From: Escherichia coli
Lineage (GTDB): Bacteria > Pseudomonadota > Gammaproteobacteria > Enterobacterales > Enterobacteriaceae
Strand: one strand, 5' to 3'
Assembly: GCF_030013595.1 (NCBI RefSeq)
Contig: NZ_CP122768.1
Length of the DNA stretch: 64,000 nt
Positions within the stretch are counted from its first letter, which is position 1. Every line of letters begins with the position of its first letter. This document shows, one piece after another, positions 33,009 through 42,154 of this stretch. Under the pieces are notes generated by a model, which did not search any database, was not told the DNA's origin, and saw only the letters and a program-made list of their open reading frames with translations. The translations under genes and the position numbers were made by a program.

Positions 33009-33446
33009 TTACTTAATAACAGTAACCACAGCCACAAGCACGGCCATCGCAGACAGGACAATACCTGTGAGTAACCAAGTCTGATTTGCAAATGATTTCT
33101 GAAGTTCAGTACGATGCTCAGCCATCTCAACTTTCAGAGACTGGCGTAAATCAGCCATCTCAGACTTCAGGGATTGGCGCGATTCTGCCATCTCAAGCCT
33201 CAACCCTTCGCGAATCTCCAGTACATCAGATTTGGTAGCAAAGGATTCGCTTCTTGTGGTGAGAGTAATCAGGTTGTTTTTGATTTCAGTCACATCACTT
33301 TCCAGGCAACTGACCCGCCGTTCAAGGTCGTCATTCATGCCATCACCTCCATCATTACCACTTCCTGTTACTTGGTTGTTGGATACATTATAGGCATTCT
33401 CTTTCTTTTTTCTGAACCGCGAAATATGTGCAACATTCTCTGCCAT
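33009..33446 (-). CDS. hypothetical coiled-coil protein with C-terminal transmembrane anchor
   Basis: ORF ...LEIREGLRLEMAESRQSLKSEMADLRQSLKVEMAEHRTELQKSFANQTWLLTGIVLSAMAVLVAVVTVIK; ATG shares one base with the upstream stop (TGATG); family not recognised. Confidence 0.55.
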   Translation of the reverse strand: MAENVAHISRFRKKKENAYNVSNNQVTGSGNDGGDGMNDDLERRVSCLESDVTEIKNNLITLTTRSESFATKSDVLEIREGLRLEMAESRQSLKSEMADLRQSLKVEMAEHRTELQKSFANQTWLLTGIVLSAMAVLVAVVTVIK

Positions 33447-33808
33447 CACTTCTCATCACCCTGCTTGCCTACCCAGTTCATAAAGGCCCGGGCCGAGTAA
33501 CGATGAACAAACCCACATCTGTTACAGGTAAGTCGGAATTCATAGTTATGGATATTTTCCCGATCATGTCCCTCATATCCCGGATACCCAGTAAATGGAC
33601 CGATGTAATCAAGCATAACAAAAGTGCCTAAATCACACTCCTCAGCAGTTTTCGGCTCAGGCCCCACCTCAACAATATTCGTCAAATACATGTACATATC
33701 CGTATCGCCACACGACAAACATTTTTCATTCGTAGACGACTCATTGAGAAAACGCGCAAAATTATCGAGCGTTGCCATTCTTTTAAGTTCATCTAAATGA
33801 AACTTCAC
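33446..33808 (-). CDS. hypothetical Cys-rich protein (two CxxC pairs), translationally coupled to int
   Basis: 120-aa ORF with CLSCGD and CNRCGF; GTG start 2 nt after the int stop, preceded by AGGAGG inside the int 3' end. Confidence 0.55.
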   Translation of the reverse strand: MKFHLDELKRMATLDNFARFLNESSTNEKCLSCGDTDMYMYLTNIVEVGPEPKTAEECDLGTFVMLDYIGPFTGYPGYEGHDRENIHNYEFRLTCNRCGFVHRYSARAFMNWVGKQGDEK

Positions 33809-34837: not shown

Positions 34838-35149
34838 TTAGCCGGGCTGTGTGCCAGTCTTGCGGGATTTTTGAGAAGACGATGTGTTTTCTGGCCCATC
34901 AGGGGAGAGAGAAGGACTGATCTGCCCAGCAGCCTCATTTGTTTCGTTACTCATCAACCACGTAGTGTATTTTTTAAATTCCGGGTGCATTGTGATTTTC
35001 AGTAAAACCTCCGTTCCCACACCTCGAATACCAGTCTCGTATTGCTTAACCGTACCAACCGCAATACCTATTGAATCCGCGAACTTTGCCTGACTAAGCC
35101 CCTCAGATTCTCGAATTGCTTTTAGCTTCTTTGATATCTCTATTGACAT
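34838..35149 (-). CDS. C: immunity repressor C (P2 C family HTH)
   Basis: 103-aa ORF MSIEISKKLKAIRESEGLSQAKFADSIGIAVGTVKQYETG...HPEFKKYTTWLMSNE...GQISPSL, resembles P2 C; directly upstream of int on the same strand. Confidence 0.75.
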   Translation of the reverse strand: MSIEISKKLKAIRESEGLSQAKFADSIGIAVGTVKQYETGIRGVGTEVLLKITMHPEFKKYTTWLMSNETNEAAGQISPSLSPDGPENTSSSQKSRKTGTQPG

Positions 35150-35244
35150 GGTGTGCACCTGAATACTATATTGGTTATCAGTTGAGTACCACTTGACACT
35201 ACAAAGAGCCACAAATAGCACCAGATTGAATAGGTTATCACACC
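35150..35244. promoter_or_regulatory. divergent C / cox switch region with direct repeats
   Basis: 95-bp interval between divergent C and cox starts; AT(T/A)GGTTATCA at 35170..35181 and 35230..35241 flank a TTGACA at 35193..35198. Confidence 0.5.
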
Positions 35245-35523
35245 ATGGCAAAAGTCCTTAACACATACGAACAAGCGGATTTTGAGCGTTTGGCGGCGTT
35301 CTACCCATACCGTAATGAACATGGGCTACCGGTACTTGAAGAAAGCCTGGAGGATTATGCGAAACGCACAAATCAAAGCATTCTCGCTGTAAGAAGGCAG
35401 GCTGATAGATCGGTAATTCCCGTTACTCAAGAAGGAAGAAACACAAAACGCAAAGTAAATCTCTTCGCAATTTTCCTGAAAACCATCAGAAACGCAGAGA
35501 AATACGTGCAAATGACAAAATAA
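35245..35523 (+). CDS. cox: Cox/Apl-like excisionase-regulator (putative)
   Basis: 92-aa ORF first in the rightward early operon; central ...YAKRTNQSILAVRRQADRSVIPV... resembles the P2 Cox HTH segment. Confidence 0.55.
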   Translation: MAKVLNTYEQADFERLAAFYPYRNEHGLPVLEESLEDYAKRTNQSILAVRRQADRSVIPVTQEGRNTKRKVNLFAIFLKTIRNAEKYVQMTK

Positions 35524-35537
35524 CGAGGTGTCATTTT

Positions 35538-35876
35538 ATGCTGAAGCAACGCCGTAATTTTTGTACCGGAACAGAACGCCACGCTAACCGTTTCACTACC
35601 AGTGCATCACGCAGCAACATCCGCTACAGCCTGAGTGATACACACGCAACGCCGGATGGCTACCCAGTAAAACAAATCGGCGAGCACGCCTGGCTGATTG
35701 AGAAAGCTGGAATCGTGATCCACAAATGCCCACGCAATCCGTTTACCGGAAACCGCATTTTTGCACTGAGCTGTGGCGACAATCAGTTCGGGCAGGATTT
35801 CACATTATACGAAGCACTTCGCACGGTTGATCGTCTGCTTCGCGGGCAAAGTTTTATTAAACAGGCTGATTTATAA
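35538..35876 (+). CDS. hypothetical early-region protein
   Basis: 112-aa ORF in the early operon after cox; no family recognised. Confidence 0.45.
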   Translation: MLKQRRNFCTGTERHANRFTTSASRSNIRYSLSDTHATPDGYPVKQIGEHAWLIEKAGIVIHKCPRNPFTGNRIFALSCGDNQFGQDFTLYEALRTVDRLLRGQSFIKQADL

Positions 35877-35886
35877 CAGGTGCTTT

Positions 35887-36174
35887 ATGACCAAAGACCA
35901 TGCACAAGGTGTATTTATTCGTTTTATTGATTTTCGCGGTGAACTGTTATTACGTGCATCCGCTATTGACGGAGTGACTCCGGCGGGTAAAAACGGAGCC
36001 GACGAAGCCACTTACGTTTATCTGAACGGCACGCGACTGCTTGTGGAACTTCCGTACCAGACCGTACGAGAAATCATCAGCGAAGCTGAAAAGGCACGCC
36101 AGGTTAATGGCGATGAACCCTATATCGAAATTATTTGTATGGATTCAGAAGCTGAAATACAGAAAGCAGATTAA
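35887..36174 (+). CDS. hypothetical early-region protein
   Basis: 95-aa ORF from ATG 35887 (MTKDHAQGVFIRFIDFRGELLL...), abutting the previous ORF. Confidence 0.45.
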   Translation: MTKDHAQGVFIRFIDFRGELLLRASAIDGVTPAGKNGADEATYVYLNGTRLLVELPYQTVREIISEAEKARQVNGDEPYIEIICMDSEAEIQKAD

Positions 36175-36182
36175 AGGGCGTT

Positions 36183-36428
36183 GTGATGGGCAAAGAATAT
36201 AAAACTCTCATTAACAAAGCACTTGAGCGTTTTTATTTTCGCTTAAGTGCATCAGGCGCTCATGCTGAACGTGCGGCCCGTGACTCATTGACCAGAGCAA
36301 TCCGAAGTCTGTATGACGTGGCTTTTTACGCTGATGATCTGGATGCACTTAACGAACTTTCCGAGCTGATCTGTGCCGCAGAATGCGGGGAACATATTGA
36401 ACCGTATAAGCTGGGAAATATCGCATGA
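36183..36428 (+). CDS. hypothetical early-region protein
   Basis: 81-aa ORF MMGKEYKTLINKALERFYFRL...; stop overlaps the next start (ATGA). Confidence 0.45.
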   Translation: MMGKEYKTLINKALERFYFRLSASGAHAERAARDSLTRAIRSLYDVAFYADDLDALNELSELICAAECGEHIEPYKLGNIA

Positions 36429-36538
36429 GTATATTTATTTCATGGCTTGTTCTGATTATTTCGGTGGCCTGCGCCATTGGGATTATGCGAATTATTAATT
36501 CAGTAAAAAAGATTGAACGCTTTTTCACTGAAGAATAA
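36425..36538 (+). CDS. small hydrophobic peptide (37 aa), putative
   Basis: MSIFISWLVLIISVACAIGIMRIINSVKKIERFFTEE; single predicted TM helix; ATGA coupling to the upstream ORF; below the ORF-track cutoff. Confidence 0.3.
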   Translation: MSIFISWLVLIISVACAIGIMRIINSVKKIERFFTEE

Positions 36539-36624
36539 CCGCGCAAATAAGACCCCAGGTTAAATAAGAAAATGTGAAAACAATCCGCATTCGCGGAGGT
36601 ATTCGCACACGCCAAGGAGGCGTA

Positions 36625-36828
36625 ATGGCAATTAAGCATTTTCCTGTCGTTCGTTTCACCTCCAGAGGACGTGAATACGAAGTTGACGAACGCCTGATTA
36701 CCACAATCGACAAACACCGTTCAGAAAAGGATGCACATCACATCTATCTCACTGACGGCACTTACTTCTGCGCCACCAATGTGGTGCAGGTGAATCTTAT
36801 CAGACAGGTACAGGAGTCACGCAGATGA
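36625..36828 (+). CDS. hypothetical early-region protein
   Basis: 67-aa ORF from ATG 36625 (MAIKHFPVVRFTSRGREYEV...), preceded by AAGGAGG 5 nt upstream. Confidence 0.45.
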   Translation: MAIKHFPVVRFTSRGREYEVDERLITTIDKHRSEKDAHHIYLTDGTYFCATNVVQVNLIRQVQESRR

Positions 36829-37070
36829 CCATTCTGGACTACATCGCTGCCAATCCGGGTTGTAGCAGTGGAGAAATCGCCGCAGCACTGAATACACCAA
36901 CCACAACCATTAATGCGGAGCTACGCCGTCTCTGGCGCAGCGGTTTAGTCACAAGAAAAGAGCGCAAAACAGGCGGTCGCTTTTCTTATCAGGTAAACCC
37001 GATGCCGTTTGGGTGTAGCAACCCACTAACCCAGATGTTCAACCAGCTACTGAGGGAAATCAGAGCATGA
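36825..37070 (+). CDS. small winged-helix-like DNA-binding protein (putative)
   Basis: 81-aa ORF MTILDYIAANPGCSSGEIAAALNTPTTTINAELRRLWRSGLVTRKERK..., MarR/ArsR-like recognition-helix pattern; ATGA overlap with the previous ORF. Confidence 0.5.
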   Translation: MTILDYIAANPGCSSGEIAAALNTPTTTINAELRRLWRSGLVTRKERKTGGRFSYQVNPMPFGCSNPLTQMFNQLLREIRA

Positions 37071-37211
37071 GCACCTCCAACTGCCGGAAACCACGTCGGG
37101 CTTCAGCAGCTCATCCGGCAGCAAAACAAACTCCATTAATTCCTGTTCCGGGCCTTTCCTGCACCTTGCGGCGGGAGGCCTTCGCACATCTGTAACAAGA
37201 GGATTGCCGCA

Positions 37212-37577
37212 ATGATTCTCGCCAACGACTTTCTTGAATACCTGCTCAACACAGAGCGTGATCTTGCCGTTCGCGTGCGTGAACGTTATGACATGTACCT
37301 GAAATCCCTGCCTGTACCGCAGCTCGCTGACGGAAAGATTGTTATTGATGGTCGCTACATGATTGACAGCCACGAGGGAAATTACAGGCTTTACCGCATT
37401 GAAGGTGGCACCCCGTCCGTTATTGGCATTTACCAGCGCCCATCCTCTGCAATCGTCGATGTGATTGCCGACAGCATCCGCATCACACATCGCCATGCCG
37501 ACACAGAAGACACCGTGCTGGAAATTCAGCGGCTGGCTACAGTCTGCCGCGACACCCTGAATGGCATGACGAAGTAA
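37212..37577 (+). CDS. hypothetical early-region protein
   Basis: 121-aa ORF immediately upstream of replication gene A. Confidence 0.45.
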   Translation: MILANDFLEYLLNTERDLAVRVRERYDMYLKSLPVPQLADGKIVIDGRYMIDSHEGNYRLYRIEGGTPSVIGIYQRPSSAIVDVIADSIRITHRHADTEDTVLEIQRLATVCRDTLNGMTK

Positions 37578-37583
37578 ATCACT

Positions 37584-40406
37584 ATGACGGCAAAGTACAT
37601 CAGGGACTGGCAACAACCGCGCCACGCAGTGGGGCGTGAAGGAACGGGGATCCCCGCTCCTGAATCCGCGCTTTCCTCCTGGCTGGATGCCTACCGGGCA
37701 GAGAACGAGCGCCGCCAGGAAATGGCTGATGCGGCGTTCTCCGCCACGCCGCTGGGCAACCTGATTAATAAAAGCCTGGACGCACAGGAAAAACAGGACA
37801 AAACCATCACACTGGCAGGAGACGCCAGAAAACAGGCACGCGGCGCGGTGGATGAAGCCATGGCCTCGCTGCGCCTGCTGCCGTCCTATCTGCGCGATCC
37901 GCTTATTCGCCACCTCTCCTTCCTGCGCAAAAAACAGGAAGCCGATCGTCAGAAAGGAAAAAACGCCAGGCAGGCAGAACGCTATGCGCGTGGGACCCTG
38001 CGCAAAATATTCGAACGTCTGGAGCGCACCGATCACCGCTGGCTGACACCGGGTTATCGCTCCCTTGCCGGACGCGAACGCCTGGACGATTTGCTTTACC
38101 TGCCGCAGCTCAACAAACACCAGATACAGACGCTGGCCACCATGACGGCGGCGATGTTCAGCAGCACCTTCGAAAAACTCTGCGATGGCTTTGGCGCGAC
38201 CGATGGCGAACTGACCATGGATGTAACGCTGAAGGCGTATCAGATGCTGGCCCGCATGGCGTTACACCTGCACATCATGCCTCCACATTATGACGCACTG
38301 ACAACAGACAAAGACCGGAGGAACGAACCGGACACGGAGCTGCTGCCGGGCGCAATCCTTCGCCTGACCTGTGCGGAATGGTGGAAACGCAAACTGTGGC
38401 TGTTACGTTGCGAGTGGCGGGAAGAACAACTCCGCGCCGCCTGTCTGGTTTCCAGAAAAACATCACCCTATCTGAGCCAGGACGCGTTAAGCGAGTTTCG
38501 CGCACACCGCGAGAAAACACGCGATTTCCTGAAAAGTTTCATGCTGGAAAATGAAGACGGGTTCACGATTGATCTCGAGACGGTGTATTACGCGGGAGTA
38601 AGTAACCCGGTTCACCGTAAGGCAGAAATGATGGCCACCATGAAGGGGCTGGAACTTCTGGCCGAAGCCCGTGGCGACAGAGCGGTGTTTCTGACTGTCA
38701 CCTGCCCGTCAAAATACCACGCAACAACGGAGAACGGTCATCCGAATCCCAAATGGAACGGGGCCACCATGCGCGACTCCAGCGATTACCTGGTTAACAC
38801 GTTTTTTGCGACGGTCCGCAAAAAACTGAACCGCGACGGTCTTCGCTGGTATGGCATCCGCACGGTGGAGCCTCACCATGACGGCACTGTGCACTGGCAT
38901 ATGATGGTCTTTGCACATCCGGACGAGATTGAAACCATCGTGTCCCACGTCTGCGATATTGCCATTCAGGAAGACCGCCACGAGCTGGGCGATGATATTA
39001 CTCCGCGTTTTAAAGCGGAGTACGTCGACGGCTCAAAAGGCACGCCAACCAGCTACATCGCCACCTACATCGGAAAGAACCTGGACAGCCGCGCCGTGGA
39101 TGGCATCGCCCCGAAAACGGGCAAGCCACGCGTTGACCACGAAACCGGAAAATCAATGGCCGAGAGCGTGGAGCGCGCCATCGGCTGGGCGCGCCTTCAC
39201 CGGGTCCGCCAGTTCCAGTTCTTTGGCATCCCCTCCCGTCAGGTGTGGCGTGAACTGCGCCGCCTTGCCAGCCAGATGGCACGCAACCCGGAAGGCCCGC
39301 AACGGCTGAAGGATGACGCAATGGATGCAGTGCTCGCTGCCGCTGATGCCGGGTGTTTTGCCTCCTACATTGAAAAACAGGGCGGCGTACTTGTTCCACG
39401 CCAGGACTACCTGATTCGCACCGCCTACGACCTCGCAGATGAGCTGAACGATTACGGCGAACAGAGCGTACAGATTTACGGGATCTGGTCACCACTCATC
39501 GGGGAGTCTTCCCGTGTGTGCACACATCCGGATAACTGGAAGCTGGTAAGACGTAAACCGGAAGCGGAAGACAGCGCCCGCGAAAATGGTTTTGACCTTC
39601 AGGGCGGCCCTGCCGCCCCTTGGACTCGTGGCAATAACTGTCCCCGTGTACAGGAAACGGACAACAACGGGACAGAACAGCCGGAAGAACGGCCAGCACC
39701 GTGGCCGCAGCTCCCTGACGGCGTTGAAGTGAACGAATGGATGCGCTCACTGAAACGGCACGAACGCCGGGCGCTGATGCGTTCGCTTCGTGACAAACAG
39801 GCAAAAAACAGCAGTGATGAAATGCAGAGCTGGACACAGAGCCGCAAACAGCAGCGGCCTTTGCCTGATAACCACGAATTACTCGCTAAAGAATGGCGGG
39901 AGTCTGCTGAATCTCTCGGCCTGCATATCGGTGAACAACAGATGCAGCACCTGTTACGGGGCGGCAGTCTGTACGTTGACGGCAGCATCATTGCACCGCA
40001 GGGATTTGAAATTGTACGCAAACCGGATACCCGCCCGGACAGCCGAATCACGCAGCTCTGGCAGCGCCTGAGCCGTAATCATGGCGTAAGCAGCACGGAG
40101 ATCCGCCATAACCCGGTCGCCAGCTATCTGGCACAGCTGGGGGCATCAGACCCTGAAGCCGCCGCACGCCTGGCATCCACACTTCAGCAGGACCAGAACA
40201 CCATGAAAACACCCGTTACCGTGCTTTCTGACATGCTGCGCGCCATCCGCGACGCAGAGCACGCACAGAGAATCAGTGAAACCACTGAACGCGCCAGCCG
40301 CAAAGCAGACCTGCTGCGGGGTGGCCTGACCAGTGGAAACAAAAAACAGACAGAAACGGGACTCACGAATCCCGCAAATGAGCAAAAAACGCGCAGCGAT
40401 ATATGA
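37584..40406 (+). CDS. A: replication initiation endonuclease, P2 gpA family (rolling-circle, HUH motif)
   Basis: 940-aa ORF with ...WYGIRTVEPHHDGTVHWHMMVF... HxH motif and ...YIATYIGKN... active-site Tyr region typical of P2/186 A proteins. Confidence 0.9.
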   Translation: MTAKYIRDWQQPRHAVGREGTGIPAPESALSSWLDAYRAENERRQEMADAAFSATPLGNLINKSLDAQEKQDKTITLAGDARKQARGAVDEAMASLRLLPSYLRDPLIRHLSFLRKKQEADRQKGKNARQAERYARGTLRKIFERLERTDHRWLTPGYRSLAGRERLDDLLYLPQLNKHQIQTLATMTAAMFSSTFEKLCDGFGATDGELTMDVTLKAYQMLARMALHLHIMPPHYDALTTDKDRRNEPDTELLPGAILRLTCAEWWKRKLWLLRCEWREEQLRAACLVSRKTSPYLSQDALSEFRAHREKTRDFLKSFMLENEDGFTIDLETVYYAGVSNPVHRKAEMMATMKGLELLAEARGDRAVFLTVTCPSKYHATTENGHPNPKWNGATMRDSSDYLVNTFFATVRKKLNRDGLRWYGIRTVEPHHDGTVHWHMMVFAHPDEIETIVSHVCDIAIQEDRHELGDDITPRFKAEYVDGSKGTPTSYIATYIGKNLDSRAVDGIAPKTGKPRVDHETGKSMAESVERAIGWARLHRVRQFQFFGIPSRQVWRELRRLASQMARNPEGPQRLKDDAMDAVLAAADAGCFASYIEKQGGVLVPRQDYLIRTAYDLADELNDYGEQSVQIYGIWSPLIGESSRVCTHPDNWKLVRRKPEAEDSARENGFDLQGGPAAPWTRGNNCPRVQETDNNGTEQPEERPAPWPQLPDGVEVNEWMRSLKRHERRALMRSLRDKQAKNSSDEMQSWTQSRKQQRPLPDNHELLAKEWRESAESLGLHIGEQQMQHLLRGGSLYVDGSIIAPQGFEIVRKPDTRPDSRITQLWQRLSRNHGVSSTEIRHNPVASYLAQLGASDPEAAARLASTLQQDQNTMKTPVTVLSDMLRAIRDAEHAQRISETTERASRKADLLRGGLTSGNKKQTETGLTNPANEQKTRSDI

Positions 40407-40482: not shown

Positions 40483-41442
40483 ATGAAAATTTGTATCGAC
40501 GACGGCTCCACCAACATCAAGCTGGCATGGACTGAGAACGGCGAACGCCGCAACGCCATCAGCCCGAACAGCTTCAAGTCGGAATGGTCTGCGCCGTTCG
40601 GCGGCACGCAGCCCGCGAACTACATGCTTGATGGCGTGCGCTATGGTTTTGATCCGGTCAGCGATCGCTTTGTCCAGACGACCGACACGCAATACCAGTA
40701 CAGCGATGTAAATGTCATTGCCATTCATCACGCGCTGGTCAAATCAGGCATCACGCCACAGGAGGTGGATGTGGTTGTCACCCTGCCACTGAGCGAGTAT
40801 TTCGACACAAACGCACAGCCGGACATGGCCAACATCAACCGCAAAAAAGCGAACGTTATGCGCCCGGTGGAGTACCAGAACGGCGAAGCATTCACTATCC
40901 GTAACGTGCGGGTTATGCCTGAATCCATTCCGGCTGGCTTTAAAGCACTGGCTGACATGAGTCCGTTTGAATCCCTGCTGATTGTGGATTTAGGTGGAAC
41001 CACGCTGGATGTGGCAAAGGTTCAGGGACAACTGGCAGGTATCAGCCAGGTGTTTTGCGATCCACACGTAGGCGTTTCCCTGATGGCCGATGCAGTACTG
41101 TCGGTGATGGCCACTAACGGTATGCGTACCAGTCACCACATCGCCAATACCATTATCGAACATCGCCATGATGAAGCCTGGCTGCGCCAGCACATCCACA
41201 ATGACGCGCATTACGCCAGCCTGATGGCGGTTATTCGTGAAAAGGAAGAAACACTGAAACAACGCGTGATCCGCGCGCTGGCGGGTTTTTCGGGTTACGG
41301 GCGGGTGATGGTTGTCGGTGGCGGGGCGGAGATTGTGGCACCCGCTATCCGCGAAGCCTGCGGAGTTAATGCGACTTTCATCGCGGACGGGGTGCCACAG
41401 TTTGCTCTGGTTAATGGGCTGTACGCAATGGACAAGGAGTAA
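40483..41442 (+). CDS. parM: ParM/StbA-family actin-like ATPase
   Basis: 319-aa ORF MKICIDDGSTNIKLAW...NSFKSEW...YSDVNVIAIHHAL...VMPESIPAG...IVDLGGTTLD...VVGGGAE...LVNG, alignable throughout with R1/R100 ParM/StbA. Confidence 0.85.
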   Translation: MKICIDDGSTNIKLAWTENGERRNAISPNSFKSEWSAPFGGTQPANYMLDGVRYGFDPVSDRFVQTTDTQYQYSDVNVIAIHHALVKSGITPQEVDVVVTLPLSEYFDTNAQPDMANINRKKANVMRPVEYQNGEAFTIRNVRVMPESIPAGFKALADMSPFESLLIVDLGGTTLDVAKVQGQLAGISQVFCDPHVGVSLMADAVLSVMATNGMRTSHHIANTIIEHRHDEAWLRQHIHNDAHYASLMAVIREKEETLKQRVIRALAGFSGYGRVMVVGGGAEIVAPAIREACGVNATFIADGVPQFALVNGLYAMDKE

Positions 41443-41446
41443 ACCA

Positions 41447-41758
41447 ATGACGACACCAACCAGACGGATAAGTTTCTATCTGAAGCCCGCCGCCGTCAAG
41501 AACGAAGGCGAAGCATGCGCCTGGCTGGACAGCCTTACACCAGAAGCCCGCAAAAGCGGCCAACGTGTGGCTTTTCTGGCCGGGCTGGCACTTCTGAAAA
41601 TGAATCCGGCAGAGGCTTACCGACTGGCTGCATGGGCTGACGATGAGGCGTTATCAGTGACACAAACCAGGACAGAACGCCCCGCGTCACAGCCAGTACC
41701 AACCACACAGATAACCAGTCGGATGGCCGGAAATATCAGGGCGTTATTTCCCGAATAA
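41447..41758 (+). CDS. parR: ParR/StbB-like adaptor protein (putative ribbon-helix-helix)
   Basis: 103-aa ORF MTTPTRRISFYLKPAAVKNEGEACAWLDSLTPEARKSGQRVAFLAGLALL...; AAGGAG 7 nt upstream, 4 bp after parM stop; N-terminal pattern resembles R1 ParR. Confidence 0.65.
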   Translation: MTTPTRRISFYLKPAAVKNEGEACAWLDSLTPEARKSGQRVAFLAGLALLKMNPAEAYRLAAWADDEALSVTQTRTERPASQPVPTTQITSRMAGNIRALFPE

Positions 41759-41786
41759 CACAACATCAGGGCGCATCCGCCCTGAT
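41735..41786. repeat. ATCAGGGCG direct repeat plus a 9-bp-stem hairpin at the parR 3' end
   Basis: ATCAGGGCG at 41735..41743 and 41765..41773; inverted copy CGCCCTGAT at 41778..41786 forms a hairpin with a CATC loop. Confidence 0.55.
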
Positions 41787-41821
41787 GACTTTAATCCGGG
41801 AACATAAACAAGGGGGACACA

Positions 41822-42154
41822 ATGCAACACATTGACAGAGAAAAAGCGCAGCGACTGATTGAGCGGATGGAAGCGCTGGCGAAAGAAGAAAATGTCAACA
41901 TCCAAAAAATAGCTGAATGTGGCCAGATAGTTCTTCGTCGTGAAAAAGACCTCAAACAACTGATGTCTGGCGAAACCAGCAAAACATGGACTTCAGGCGA
42001 GGAGACGATTTATTGCAGCTTCTGCAATAAATCTCAGTACGAAGTCACAAAGGTGATTGCCGGACCGTCTGTTTACATCTGCAATGAGTGCGTGGATTTG
42101 TGCAATGAAATTATCAGGAGAGAAGTGACAGACAAAAAGGGAAAAAACGCATGA
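41822..42154 (+). CDS. ClpX N-terminal zinc-binding-domain homolog with N-terminal coiled-coil extension
   Basis: 110-aa ORF; C-terminal ...[40 protein letters not shown] is near-identical in pattern to the E. coli ClpX Cys4 zinc-binding domain ([40 protein letters not shown]); AGGGGG RBS. Confidence 0.8.

Follow-up and report, generated by a model that had tools for sequence, protein, structure and literature searches.

The block between the Cox/Apl-like gene and replication gene A of an Escherichia coli prophage as a probable standard, cargo-free early operon of the P88 type

What does a P2-family prophage encode between the first gene of its early operon and its replication gene A, and does a run of small ORFs at this position hide host-directed functions or a replacement for the P2 replication gene B? 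The question is raised by an Escherichia coli prophage in the window analysed here, by which we mean the whole stretch of 64,000 nucleotides. An earlier note on this DNA had described six ORFs of 67–121 aa and a 37-codon membrane ORF between cox and A; their coordinates and ATGA overlaps are correct, and the PGAP annotation agrees. The seven ORFs are referred to as o1 to o7 (Table 1). We read the block as probably the minimal, cargo-free form of the usual early (Pe) operon found in prophages of the P88 type, which belong to the genus Xuanwuvirus in the family Peduoviridae.

Table 1. Position and description of the block, its borders and its two intergenic gaps in the window.
Feature	Coordinates	Strand	Description
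Immunity repressor C	34838-35149	-	P2 type, 103 aa; faces early operon
Candidate promoter Pe	35143-35172	+	TTGACA-18-TATATT; consensus scan 11/12
Cox/Apl-like gene	35245-35523	+	92 aa, first gene of early operon; left flank of block
o1	35538-35876	+	112 aa, DUF4761
o2	35887-36174	+	95 aa, phrog_3800
o3	36186-36428	+	80 aa, DUF4754
o4	36425-36538	+	37 aa, hydrophobic, conserved transmembrane peptide (predicted)
Intergenic gap 1	36539-36624	no strand	first cargo insertion site
o5	36625-36828	+	67 aa, phrog_3459; AAGGAGG Shine-Dalgarno upstream
o6	36825-37070	+	81 aa, stand-alone MarR-type winged helix
Intergenic gap 2	37071-37211	no strand	second cargo insertion site
o7	37212-37577	+	121 aa, putative divergent DUF5405 member
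Replication gene A	37584-40406	+	940 aa, rolling-circle nickase; right border of block

The borders of the block are those of a P2-family early operon. The repressor is 40% identical to full-length P2 C (E 2e-24, BLASTP/phmmer) and is a helix-turn-helix regulator in RefSeq. The -35 hexamer of the candidate Pe overlaps the start of C, an arrangement that equals that of the annotated P2 Pe, and we infer from its sequence that it acts as a promoter. The Cox/Apl-like protein matches phrog_11533 (E 4e-53) and, weakly, the Cox-like phrog_575; hhalign gives 99.7% probability against the cluster containing 186 Apl, with P2 Cox at E 8e-4. The A protein on the right matches Phage_GPA (E 3e-129) and shares 35% identity with 186 A and 30% with P2 A. 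Between the Cox/Apl-like gene and A, neighbouring ORFs overlap by up to 4 nt or lie at most 14 nt apart, the exceptions being gaps 1 and 2. There are two ATGA overlaps, one joining the start of o4 to the stop of o3, the other the start of o6 to the stop of o5. Scanning the block for Rfam families, repeats and terminators returned nothing relevant.

The ORFs had been taken for orphans, a label that does not fit. DUF4761 and DUF4754 account for o1 and o3, each ORF except o4 has a PHROG family of its own, and the 2.6-kb module recurs in 26% of complete E. coli genomes (1409 of 5426) as well as in the records of P88 and further Xuanwuvirus phages. At the nucleotide level it is 92–97% identical to P88, P884B11 and phages related to them, and RefSeq/PGAP calls the seven ORFs identically in E. 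coli DNA that is 99.7% identical. The gene order is constant over about 35 related phages (IMG/VR loci). All seven ORFs are under purifying selection (pN/pS 0.12–0.38); o2 to o7 are intact in nearly all of 19–33 full-length relatives, and o1 is intact in nine of the just ten relatives that aligned end to end.

The two intergenic gaps follow a different pattern from this fixed gene order. Gap 1, which harbours the o5 Shine-Dalgarno sequence as well as a palindrome and has no predicted terminator on the + strand, contains 330–730 bp of extra genes in relatives (phrog_9338, phrog_16975). In gap 2 a junction lies at about 37096/37097, either side of which aligns to P88-type relatives that carry 0.9–2.4 kb of cargo, namely Ead/Ea22-like, SPFH/Band 7, ash-like and 'derepression protein' genes; the remnant in the window, 37096-37215 (120 nt), is an 'ash family protein, incomplete' in RefSeq. 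Judging from these alignments, both gaps serve relatives as cargo insertion sites, and the window holds the minimal, cargo-free version of the module. A 42-codon ORF at 37067-37195 in the o6–o7 gap was considered as a further gene and rejected, the coding test across relatives giving it no support.

The block's first three genes encode small, soluble proteins, found in P2-family lineages of enterobacteria and without known fold relatives. The match of o1 to DUF4761 (PF15958) spans the full profile, positions 1–105, at 225.4 bits (E 1e-67; gathering threshold 27 bits). Its residues 1–32 are basic and disordered (pI 11.7) and precede a domain predicted to be compact, with five strands and a single helix; its relatives in a word-indexed homologue search all have at least 67% identity. 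The acidic o2 (pI 4.6) belongs to phrog_3800 (E 2.5e-62), is intact in 32 of 33 relatives with a pN/pS of 0.18, and is predicted to fold into five strands, a helix and one more strand (fusion model pLDDT 65–85). The match of o3 to DUF4754 (PF15946) likewise covers the entire profile, 1–80, at 181.7 bits (E 3e-54; gathering threshold 27 bits); this protein (pI 5.3, pN/pS 0.12) is predicted to form a three-helix bundle (fusion model pLDDT 70–89). A PDB profile match of o3 to a "designed helical repeat protein" (E 2e-7) reflects helix composition and not homology. The fourth product, o4, is a predicted single-pass membrane peptide with a charged C-terminal tail (GRAVY 1.16), almost invariant in sequence in 21 relatives, and its counterpart in P88, gp07, is annotated as 'membrane protein'. 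A shared strand-strand-turn-strand...strand-strand(-helix) pattern and some common sequence motifs raised the suspicion of paralogy between o2 and o5, perhaps extending to o1, which hhalign did not bear out (probability 0.8%). PDB profile searches of the block proteins gave nothing meaningful, and a Foldseek search of the PDB with the model of four fused proteins had no match below E 0.05; the structure models stem from shallow alignments, and four of the five modelled proteins were treated as an artificial fusion, which blurs the source domain of weak matches. A literature search found DUF4761, DUF4754 and DUF5405 mentioned in no paper.

The last ORF before A is connected to better-known phages. 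The o7 protein belongs to phrog_3237 (E 7e-55), and its gene stops 6 nt before the A start codon. Its predicted fold begins with an N-terminal helical hairpin, after which comes a core built from four strands and two helices. Against DUF5405 (PF17399) it scores only 13.9 bits (E 0.074), below the gathering threshold of 21.6 bits; seven of ten members of its family match this domain, the best at E 1.5e-6. By hhalign the family reaches 80% probability with P2 Orf81 (E 1.4e-5) and 66% with CP83/Orf83 (E 5.5e-5, 77 columns), and with the fusion model as query the top BFVD Foldseek match is a DUF5405 protein (E 1.2e-3, probability 1.0, target-normalised TM-score 0.66). Residues 42–121 align with DUF5405 by profile and predicted fold, and the slot before A is shared, whereas the additional N-terminal hairpin of 40 residues is peculiar to o7. 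Profile, modelled fold and position thus suggest that o7 is a divergent member of DUF5405, the family of P2 Orf81/Orf83 and 186 CP83. In P2, orf83 overlaps the start of A; in 186, CP83 is one gene away from A. The 186 record labels CP83 'not essential', which counts against a helper role for o7.

If the block is indeed a standard P88-type early operon, inactivation of the C repressor would allow transcription from the Pe-like promoter to read through o1–o7 into A. Translation of o4 would be coupled to that of o3, and translation of o6 to that of o5, with probable coupling also from o7 into A; a precedent for the last comes from the 186 record, which notes that A is apparently translated only if translation of orf84 runs to its end. 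From o5/o6 the DNA-binding regulator o6 would be produced together with o5, and o7 would aid the expression or the function of A, as an accessory factor presumed from its fold, family and position. The A protein would then nick the origin and host DnaC would load DnaB, with no B-type helicase loader involved.

Among the alternatives, the one that survives best is that one or more of o1–o5 act on the host, for instance through a block to division or replication, a disturbed membrane or an inhibited defence system, as 186 Fil and Dhr do from the equivalent position. We consider this a possibility, if a rather doubtful one. In its favour, all are small early products, among them two acidic ones, o2 (pI 4.6) and o3 (pI 5.3), and the 37-aa membrane peptide o4; 186 carries Fil and Dhr after cII, in Salmonella phage SEN5 a short DUF4761 gene adjoins an annotated 'cell division inhibitor', and cargo hot spots flank the block. 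The families are also narrow, which is consistent with host-specific targets: an exhaustive phmmer search with o1, o2, o3, o5 and o7 joined found 85 representatives among 1.84 billion clusters; none lay outside the families of the query proteins, and many were fragments or chimeras created by frameshifts. Counter-defence loci are typically variable, whereas the order and content of this block are fixed and strongly conserved, and the variable genes of the operon lie in the two gaps and not among o1–o7. Moreover, the proteins show no similarity to Fil or Dhr, to PADLOC models or to solved structures. PADLOC-DB has no matches for o1, o2, o3, o5 or o7, and those of o6 are to generic winged-helix domains (CARF/CasR C-terminal winged helix, E 9e-6 or weaker). 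The host take-over or anti-defence role envisaged in the earlier note has found no positive evidence, with only generic winged-helix matches in PADLOC and no structural ones. The stronger version, in which the five proteins o1 to o5 include at least one novel type of factor for host take-over or counter-defence, possibly an effector-plus-regulator system with o6, in the P88-type prophages of about a quarter of complete E. coli genomes, is unlikely.

The o5–o6 pair deserves separate attention, as the winged-helix pattern noticed by eye at o6 proved genuine. Both MarR_2 (35.8 bits, E 9e-9; threshold 27) and HTH_24 (34.1 bits, E 2e-8; threshold 21.9) match above gathering, and the protein, with a pI of 10, belongs to phrog_1687 (E 2e-31). 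A full MarR protein, of about 140–150 aa with dimerisation helices on both sides, was rejected: o6 has 81 aa, and the match covers the winged-helix core only (profile 9–60 of 61). It is best described as a stand-alone winged-helix protein and not as a MarR regulator proper. No PDB chain matched it at E 0.01 or better; homologues with 45% identity occur in the early-left region of Stx phages. Its partner o5 (phrog_3459, E 3e-45; pN/pS 0.15) is predicted to be all-beta with five strands (fusion model pLDDT 80–89), and the fold hints, to Sso7d (E 0.3–0.6), Tudor and SH3, are weak. From fold, family and position we infer that o6 is a DNA-binding winged-helix regulator made together with o5. Whether the two genes form a self-contained effector-plus-regulator pair in the style of anti-CRISPR/aca or small toxin–antitoxin systems, with an operator of their own in the o4–o5 gap, is a further question, and such a pair is improbable on present evidence. 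A small o5 gene is followed by an overlapping small winged-helix gene, the palindrome TCCGCATTCGCGGA lies at 36584-36597 in gap 1, 28 nt upstream of o5, both cargo sites bound o5–o6, and the PHROG family phrog_19053 spans both parts of the pair. Winged-helix relatives without o5 in Stx, Serratia and Klebsiella phages suggest, in addition, a portable regulator. However, the consensus scan finds no promoter consensus in gap 1, o5 is limited to P88-type phages in which its position is always the same, and the PADLOC matches of o6 are of the generic kind.

The apparent absence of B stood up to closer inspection. P2 gpB is a DnaB-binding replication protein or helicase loader, and its interaction with DnaB is reportedly the subject of a published study. 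The 166-aa protein has no counterpart in the window by BLASTP or phmmer, and hhalign of all ORF families against B gives at most 0.3%, with a B profile that consists of a single sequence since a scan of viral contigs yielded only copies with 99–100% identity. The best BLASTP match, between o3 and B residues 115–155, has an E of 0.007 in a database of 23 sequences, and tblastn of B against all phage records matched no Xuanwuvirus record. What does not stand is the view of this absence as a peculiarity: of 382 phage records with an A-type gene, 82 have B, all within the genus Peduovirus sensu stricto, and about 80% lack it; 186 does without it too. By analogy with 186, loading of DnaB once A has nicked the origin most likely depends on the host's DnaC in the P88-type phage. 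That one of the block's proteins, for example o1, o3 or o7, instead replaces B non-homologously by recruiting or loading DnaB seems very improbable. The idea draws on the presence of A without B, on the invariable position of o7 next to A, and on other systems in which phage-borne helicase loaders have been replaced non-homologously (PMC11087808). Against it, P2 has DUF5405 genes together with B, so o7 is no substitute for B; 186 also lacks B, yet has none of o1–o6; some four in five of the records with an A-type gene manage without B; and the PDB searches turned up nothing that resembles DnaC, lambda P or G39P-type loaders in fold or sequence. That some ORFs are chance open frames, chiefly o4 with its 37 codons and a sole profile match to TIGR01218 below threshold (E 0.079), is contradicted and has next to no probability left, as 29 of 31 relatives keep o4 intact and its sequence hardly varies (pN/pS 0.38), and the other six ORFs combine pN/pS values of 0.12–0.35 with strong family matches.

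Overall, the module is already known and ordinary: P88 and well over a thousand E. coli genomes have it annotated, and P2-family phages as a rule do without B. The gain is one of annotation: the 121-aa gene is tied to DUF5405, if by profile and predicted fold, the 'MarR' gene is reinterpreted as a stand-alone winged helix, and both gaps are defined as cargo insertion sites. The conserved early proteins o1–o5, without fold relatives and carried by about 26% of complete E. coli genomes, constitute the remaining knowledge gap, with a residual chance of host-directed functions.

The closest known systems are P88 (gp03–gp16), P884B11, Shae_phiSM and vB_EcoM-569R5, all Xuanwuvirus, which have the same genes, order and overlaps at a nucleotide identity of 88–97%: DUF4761, hypothetical, DUF4754, 37-aa membrane, 67-aa hypothetical, winged-helix, 121-aa hypothetical, A. 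P88 and most relatives differ in carrying 0.9–2.4 kb of cargo between the winged-helix and 121-aa genes (Ead/Ea22-like, membrane protein, SPFH/Band 7 'lipoprotein', 'derepression protein'), where the window retains only the 120-nt remnant; some also have cargo downstream of the membrane peptide and before the 67-aa gene, where the window has none. P2, with the order cox-orf78-B-orf80-orf81-orf82-orf83-A, shares a P2-type C opposite a Cox-type gene, a series of small genes interrupted by a single intergenic gap, and a DUF5405 gene immediately 5' of a GPA-type A nickase. In contrast, the window has no homologues of Orf78, B, Orf80 (DUF2732) or Orf82 (DksA-type zinc finger), and P2 has none of o1–o6. 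In 186 the order is apl-cII-fil-dhr-CP80..CP84-A. Here o1–o6 show no sequence or profile similarity to CP80–82, and CII, Fil and Dhr match none of the ORFs by phmmer or BLASTP, with hhalign at 1% or less for every pair. The earlier note had allowed that all ORFs might be characterised 186-type early proteins; by phmmer and hhalign none matches B, Orf78, CII, Fil or Dhr. Counterparts in P2 and 186 do exist for o7, namely Orf81/Orf83/CP83 (DUF5405). Unlike the prophage studied here, 186 uses a CI/CII-type switch, but it likewise lacks B, has the DUF5405 gene CP83 near A, places the small host-directed genes fil and dhr after its switch genes, and encodes an A protein that is nearer to that of the window (35% identity) than P2's.

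The best-supported reading of o1–o7, the seven small ORFs between the Cox/Apl-like gene and replication gene A, is that they form the early operon known from P88-type prophages, a real and ordinary feature that has been annotated before. RefSeq/PGAP annotates exactly these seven in E. coli DNA that is 99.7% identical, and the ORF listing together with direct sequence reading matches the anatomy of the earlier note, i.e. six ORFs and a hydrophobic ORF of 37 codons with ATGA coupling. ATGA overlaps join o3/o4 and o5/o6, and the remaining operon genes are spaced by 6–14 nt, save for two larger gaps (86 and 141 nt). When each ORF was compared with its full-length homologues from 80 viral loci, nearly all relatives kept it intact, and the o4 peptide showed almost no variation in 21 variants; a 42-codon ORF in the o6–o7 gap found no support as a gene in the same pN/pS and intactness comparison. 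A near-consensus candidate promoter overlaps the start of the divergent gene for the immunity repressor C, just as the early promoter Pe does in P2. The C/cox-like switch region (35140–35254) holds a direct repeat and an inverted repeat, the latter covering the starts of both divergent genes, and these are candidate operators for C or Cox.

Features of the early operon and its surroundings, with pooled pN/pS for the small ORFs
Feature	Coordinates	Strand	Size (aa)	Match or character	pN/pS
ORF just past integrase	33446-33808	-	120	two CxxC pairs (CLSCGD ... CNRCGF)	
Repressor gene C	34838-35149	-		P2-type; 40% identity to P2 C	
Inverted repeat	35140-35155 / 35239-35254			16 nt	
Promoter	35143-35172			candidate; TTGACA-18-TATATT	
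Direct repeat	35170 and 35230			ATTGGTTATCA / ATAGGTTATCA	
Cox/Apl-like gene	35245-35523	+		first gene downstream of C	
o1	35538-35876	+	112	DUF4761, E 1e-67	0.22
o2	35887-36174	+	95	phrog_3800, E 2.5e-62	0.18
o3	36186-36428	+	80	DUF4754, E 3e-54	0.12
o4	36425-36538	+	37	hydrophobic	0.38
Palindrome, o4–o5 gap	36584-36597			TCCGCATTCGCGGA, perfect 5-4-5, 28 nt 5' of o5	
o5	36625-36828	+	67	phrog_3459, E 3e-45	0.15
o6	36825-37070	+	81	MarR_2, E 9e-9; HTH_24, E 2e-8; phrog_1687, E 2e-31	0.32
o7	37212-37577	+	121	phrog_3237, E 7e-55	0.35
Gene A	37584-40406	+	940	Phage_GPA, E 3e-129	
Overlapping palindrome, 5' end of A	37640-37661			AGGAACGGGGATCCCCGCTCCT, 22 nt	
ParM/StbA	within 40483-42154	+	319	StbA_N, E 2e-82	
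Plasmid_stab_B/ParR-like	within 41312-41758	+		partition module	
Small protein	41822-42154	+		ClpX-type zinc finger; partition module	

The ORFs had been called orphans, a description contradicted by their Pfam and PHROG assignments and by matches in phage records and E. coli genomes. The 2.6-kb block occurs in 14 phage records at 88–97% identity, including P88, Xuanwuvirus P884B11 and Citrobacter phage Shae_phiSM, and is matched in 1409 of 5426 complete E. coli genomes. Despite this wide occurrence the families of o1, o2, o3, o5 and o7 are narrow: phmmer, run exhaustively over 1.84 billion cluster representatives, returned only 85 matches, all to their own families. A literature search found no paper mentioning DUF4761, DUF4754 or DUF5405. 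In a single glycine/serine-linked fusion of o2, o3, o5 and o7, modelled with a block alignment (pLDDT per domain mostly 75–90), the prediction for o2 is five strands followed by a helix and one further strand, that for o3 a three-helix bundle, that for o5 five strands, and that for o7 four strands with a pair of helices on either side. When this model was compared with the PDB by Foldseek, no match fell under E 0.05 and there were only faint resemblances to Tudor, SH3 and AP2-like folds; PDB sequence profile searches were empty save for a compositional match of o3. In the predicted domains of o1, o2 and o5 (35538–36828) a first hairpin leads through a short turn into a third strand, and a loop then connects to a second hairpin, which in o1 and o2 is followed by a helix; a 'hydrophobic strand-G-[DT]' motif is also common to all three. 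The modelled likeness could reflect ancient paralogy, which hhalign did not support (probability 0.8%). A host-directed role for some of o1–o5 is rather unlikely; PADLOC matched no ORF other than o6, and in Salmonella phage SEN5 a short DUF4761 gene adjoins one annotated 'cell division inhibitor'.

The winged-helix-like pattern previously noticed in o6 is upheld by MarR_2 and HTH_24, both above gathering, and PADLOC returned generic winged-helix matches only. It is not a full MarR protein but a bare 81-aa winged helix. Stx-converting lambdoid phages carry homologues of 45% identity without an accompanying o5; the gene lies in their early-left region, flanked by the repressor region and xis/int. 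The palindrome in the o4–o5 gap could serve the o6 protein as an operator or form a hairpin in RNA; a terminator is ruled out because no T-run follows on the + strand.

The relatives, 80 loci collected via the A protein, include about 35 of P88 type sharing the order o1-o2-o3-o4-(gap)-o5-o6-(gap)-o7-A. Across these the first gap holds 0–730 bp of accessory cargo (phrog_9338, phrog_16975) and the second 0–2.4 kb, with Ead/Ea22-like, SPFH/Band 7 'lipoprotein' and ash-like or 'derepression protein' genes; the operon here is the minimal form, free of cargo. The segment 37071–37215 is a deletion or insertion junction region of the variable o6–o7 slot, where the sides of a junction at ~37096/37097 align with opposite flanks of the P88 cargo. 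RefSeq annotates the remnant as an incomplete ash-family gene; the terminal TGA of its frame overlaps the o7 ATG, so the last cargo gene of cargo-bearing relatives is also ATGA-coupled to o7. In many 186-type relatives (loci L046–L085) a D12-class Dam-like DNA methyltransferase gene (~305 aa) lies immediately 5' of A, so the pre-A slot is a cargo site there too, and a DUF5347 gene follows fil. In more distant P2-family phages (A 40–50% identical) o1, in some cases joined by o3, is all that is retained, immediately after cox. The two cargo-site definitions go slightly beyond existing annotation. The fixed core would comprise phage-programme genes, a predicted winged-helix DNA binder (o6) with its coupled partner (o5) and a putative DUF5405 protein (o7) coupled to A, and the operon would further carry three or four small proteins without assigned role and two accessory-cargo slots.

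Elsewhere in the prophage, a plasmid-type partition module (40483–42154, + strand) lies 3' of A, before the late genes. It is 99% identical in P88 and is present, and annotated, in other Xuanwuvirus records; such a system is unexpected for an integrating P2-family prophage. The ORF just past the integrase has no Pfam match and is labelled a hypothetical protein by RefSeq in identical E. coli DNA.

The claim that the operon lacks a P2 B gene is borne out: none of the ORFs is similar to B by BLASTP or phmmer, and profile-profile comparison gave probabilities of at most 0.3%. In a tblastn search of 50,697 phage records B was found in 82, nearly all of them Peduovirus sensu stricto with identities of at least 95%, and in no Xuanwuvirus. 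Its absence is not special, since B is nearly confined to Peduovirus, a GPA-type A gene is present in 382 records and 186 likewise has no B. Phage 186 relies on host DnaC; by analogy, the most economical reading is that the host helicase loader would also serve P88-type phages. P2 B itself reportedly binds DnaB (Odegrip et al. 2000, cited in PMC11087808). A B substitute hidden among the block's ORFs is unlikely.

Among o1–o7 only o7 has P2/186 counterparts; o1–o6 bear no resemblance to the early proteins Orf78, Orf80 and Orf82 of P2 or CII, Fil, Dhr and CP80–82 of 186 by BLASTP/phmmer or hhalign. The Pfam match of o7 to DUF5405 is sub-threshold (E 0.074), and seven of ten o7-family members match this family (best E 1.5e-6). 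With hhalign, o7 aligned to P2 Orf81 at 80% probability and to the 186 CP83/P2 Orf83 cluster at 66% (77 columns), Orf81 and Orf83 both being DUF5405 proteins. In a viral structure library the top Foldseek match of the o7 model, taken from the fusion, was a DUF5405 protein (E 1.2e-3, probability 1.0, target-normalised TM-score 0.66). Together with gene position, these matches argue that o7 is a diverged member of the DUF5405 family, extended by a predicted N-terminal helical hairpin, an assignment slightly beyond existing annotation. P2 Orf83 adjoins A and 186 CP83 lies close to it, and o7 occupies the same conserved pre-A slot.
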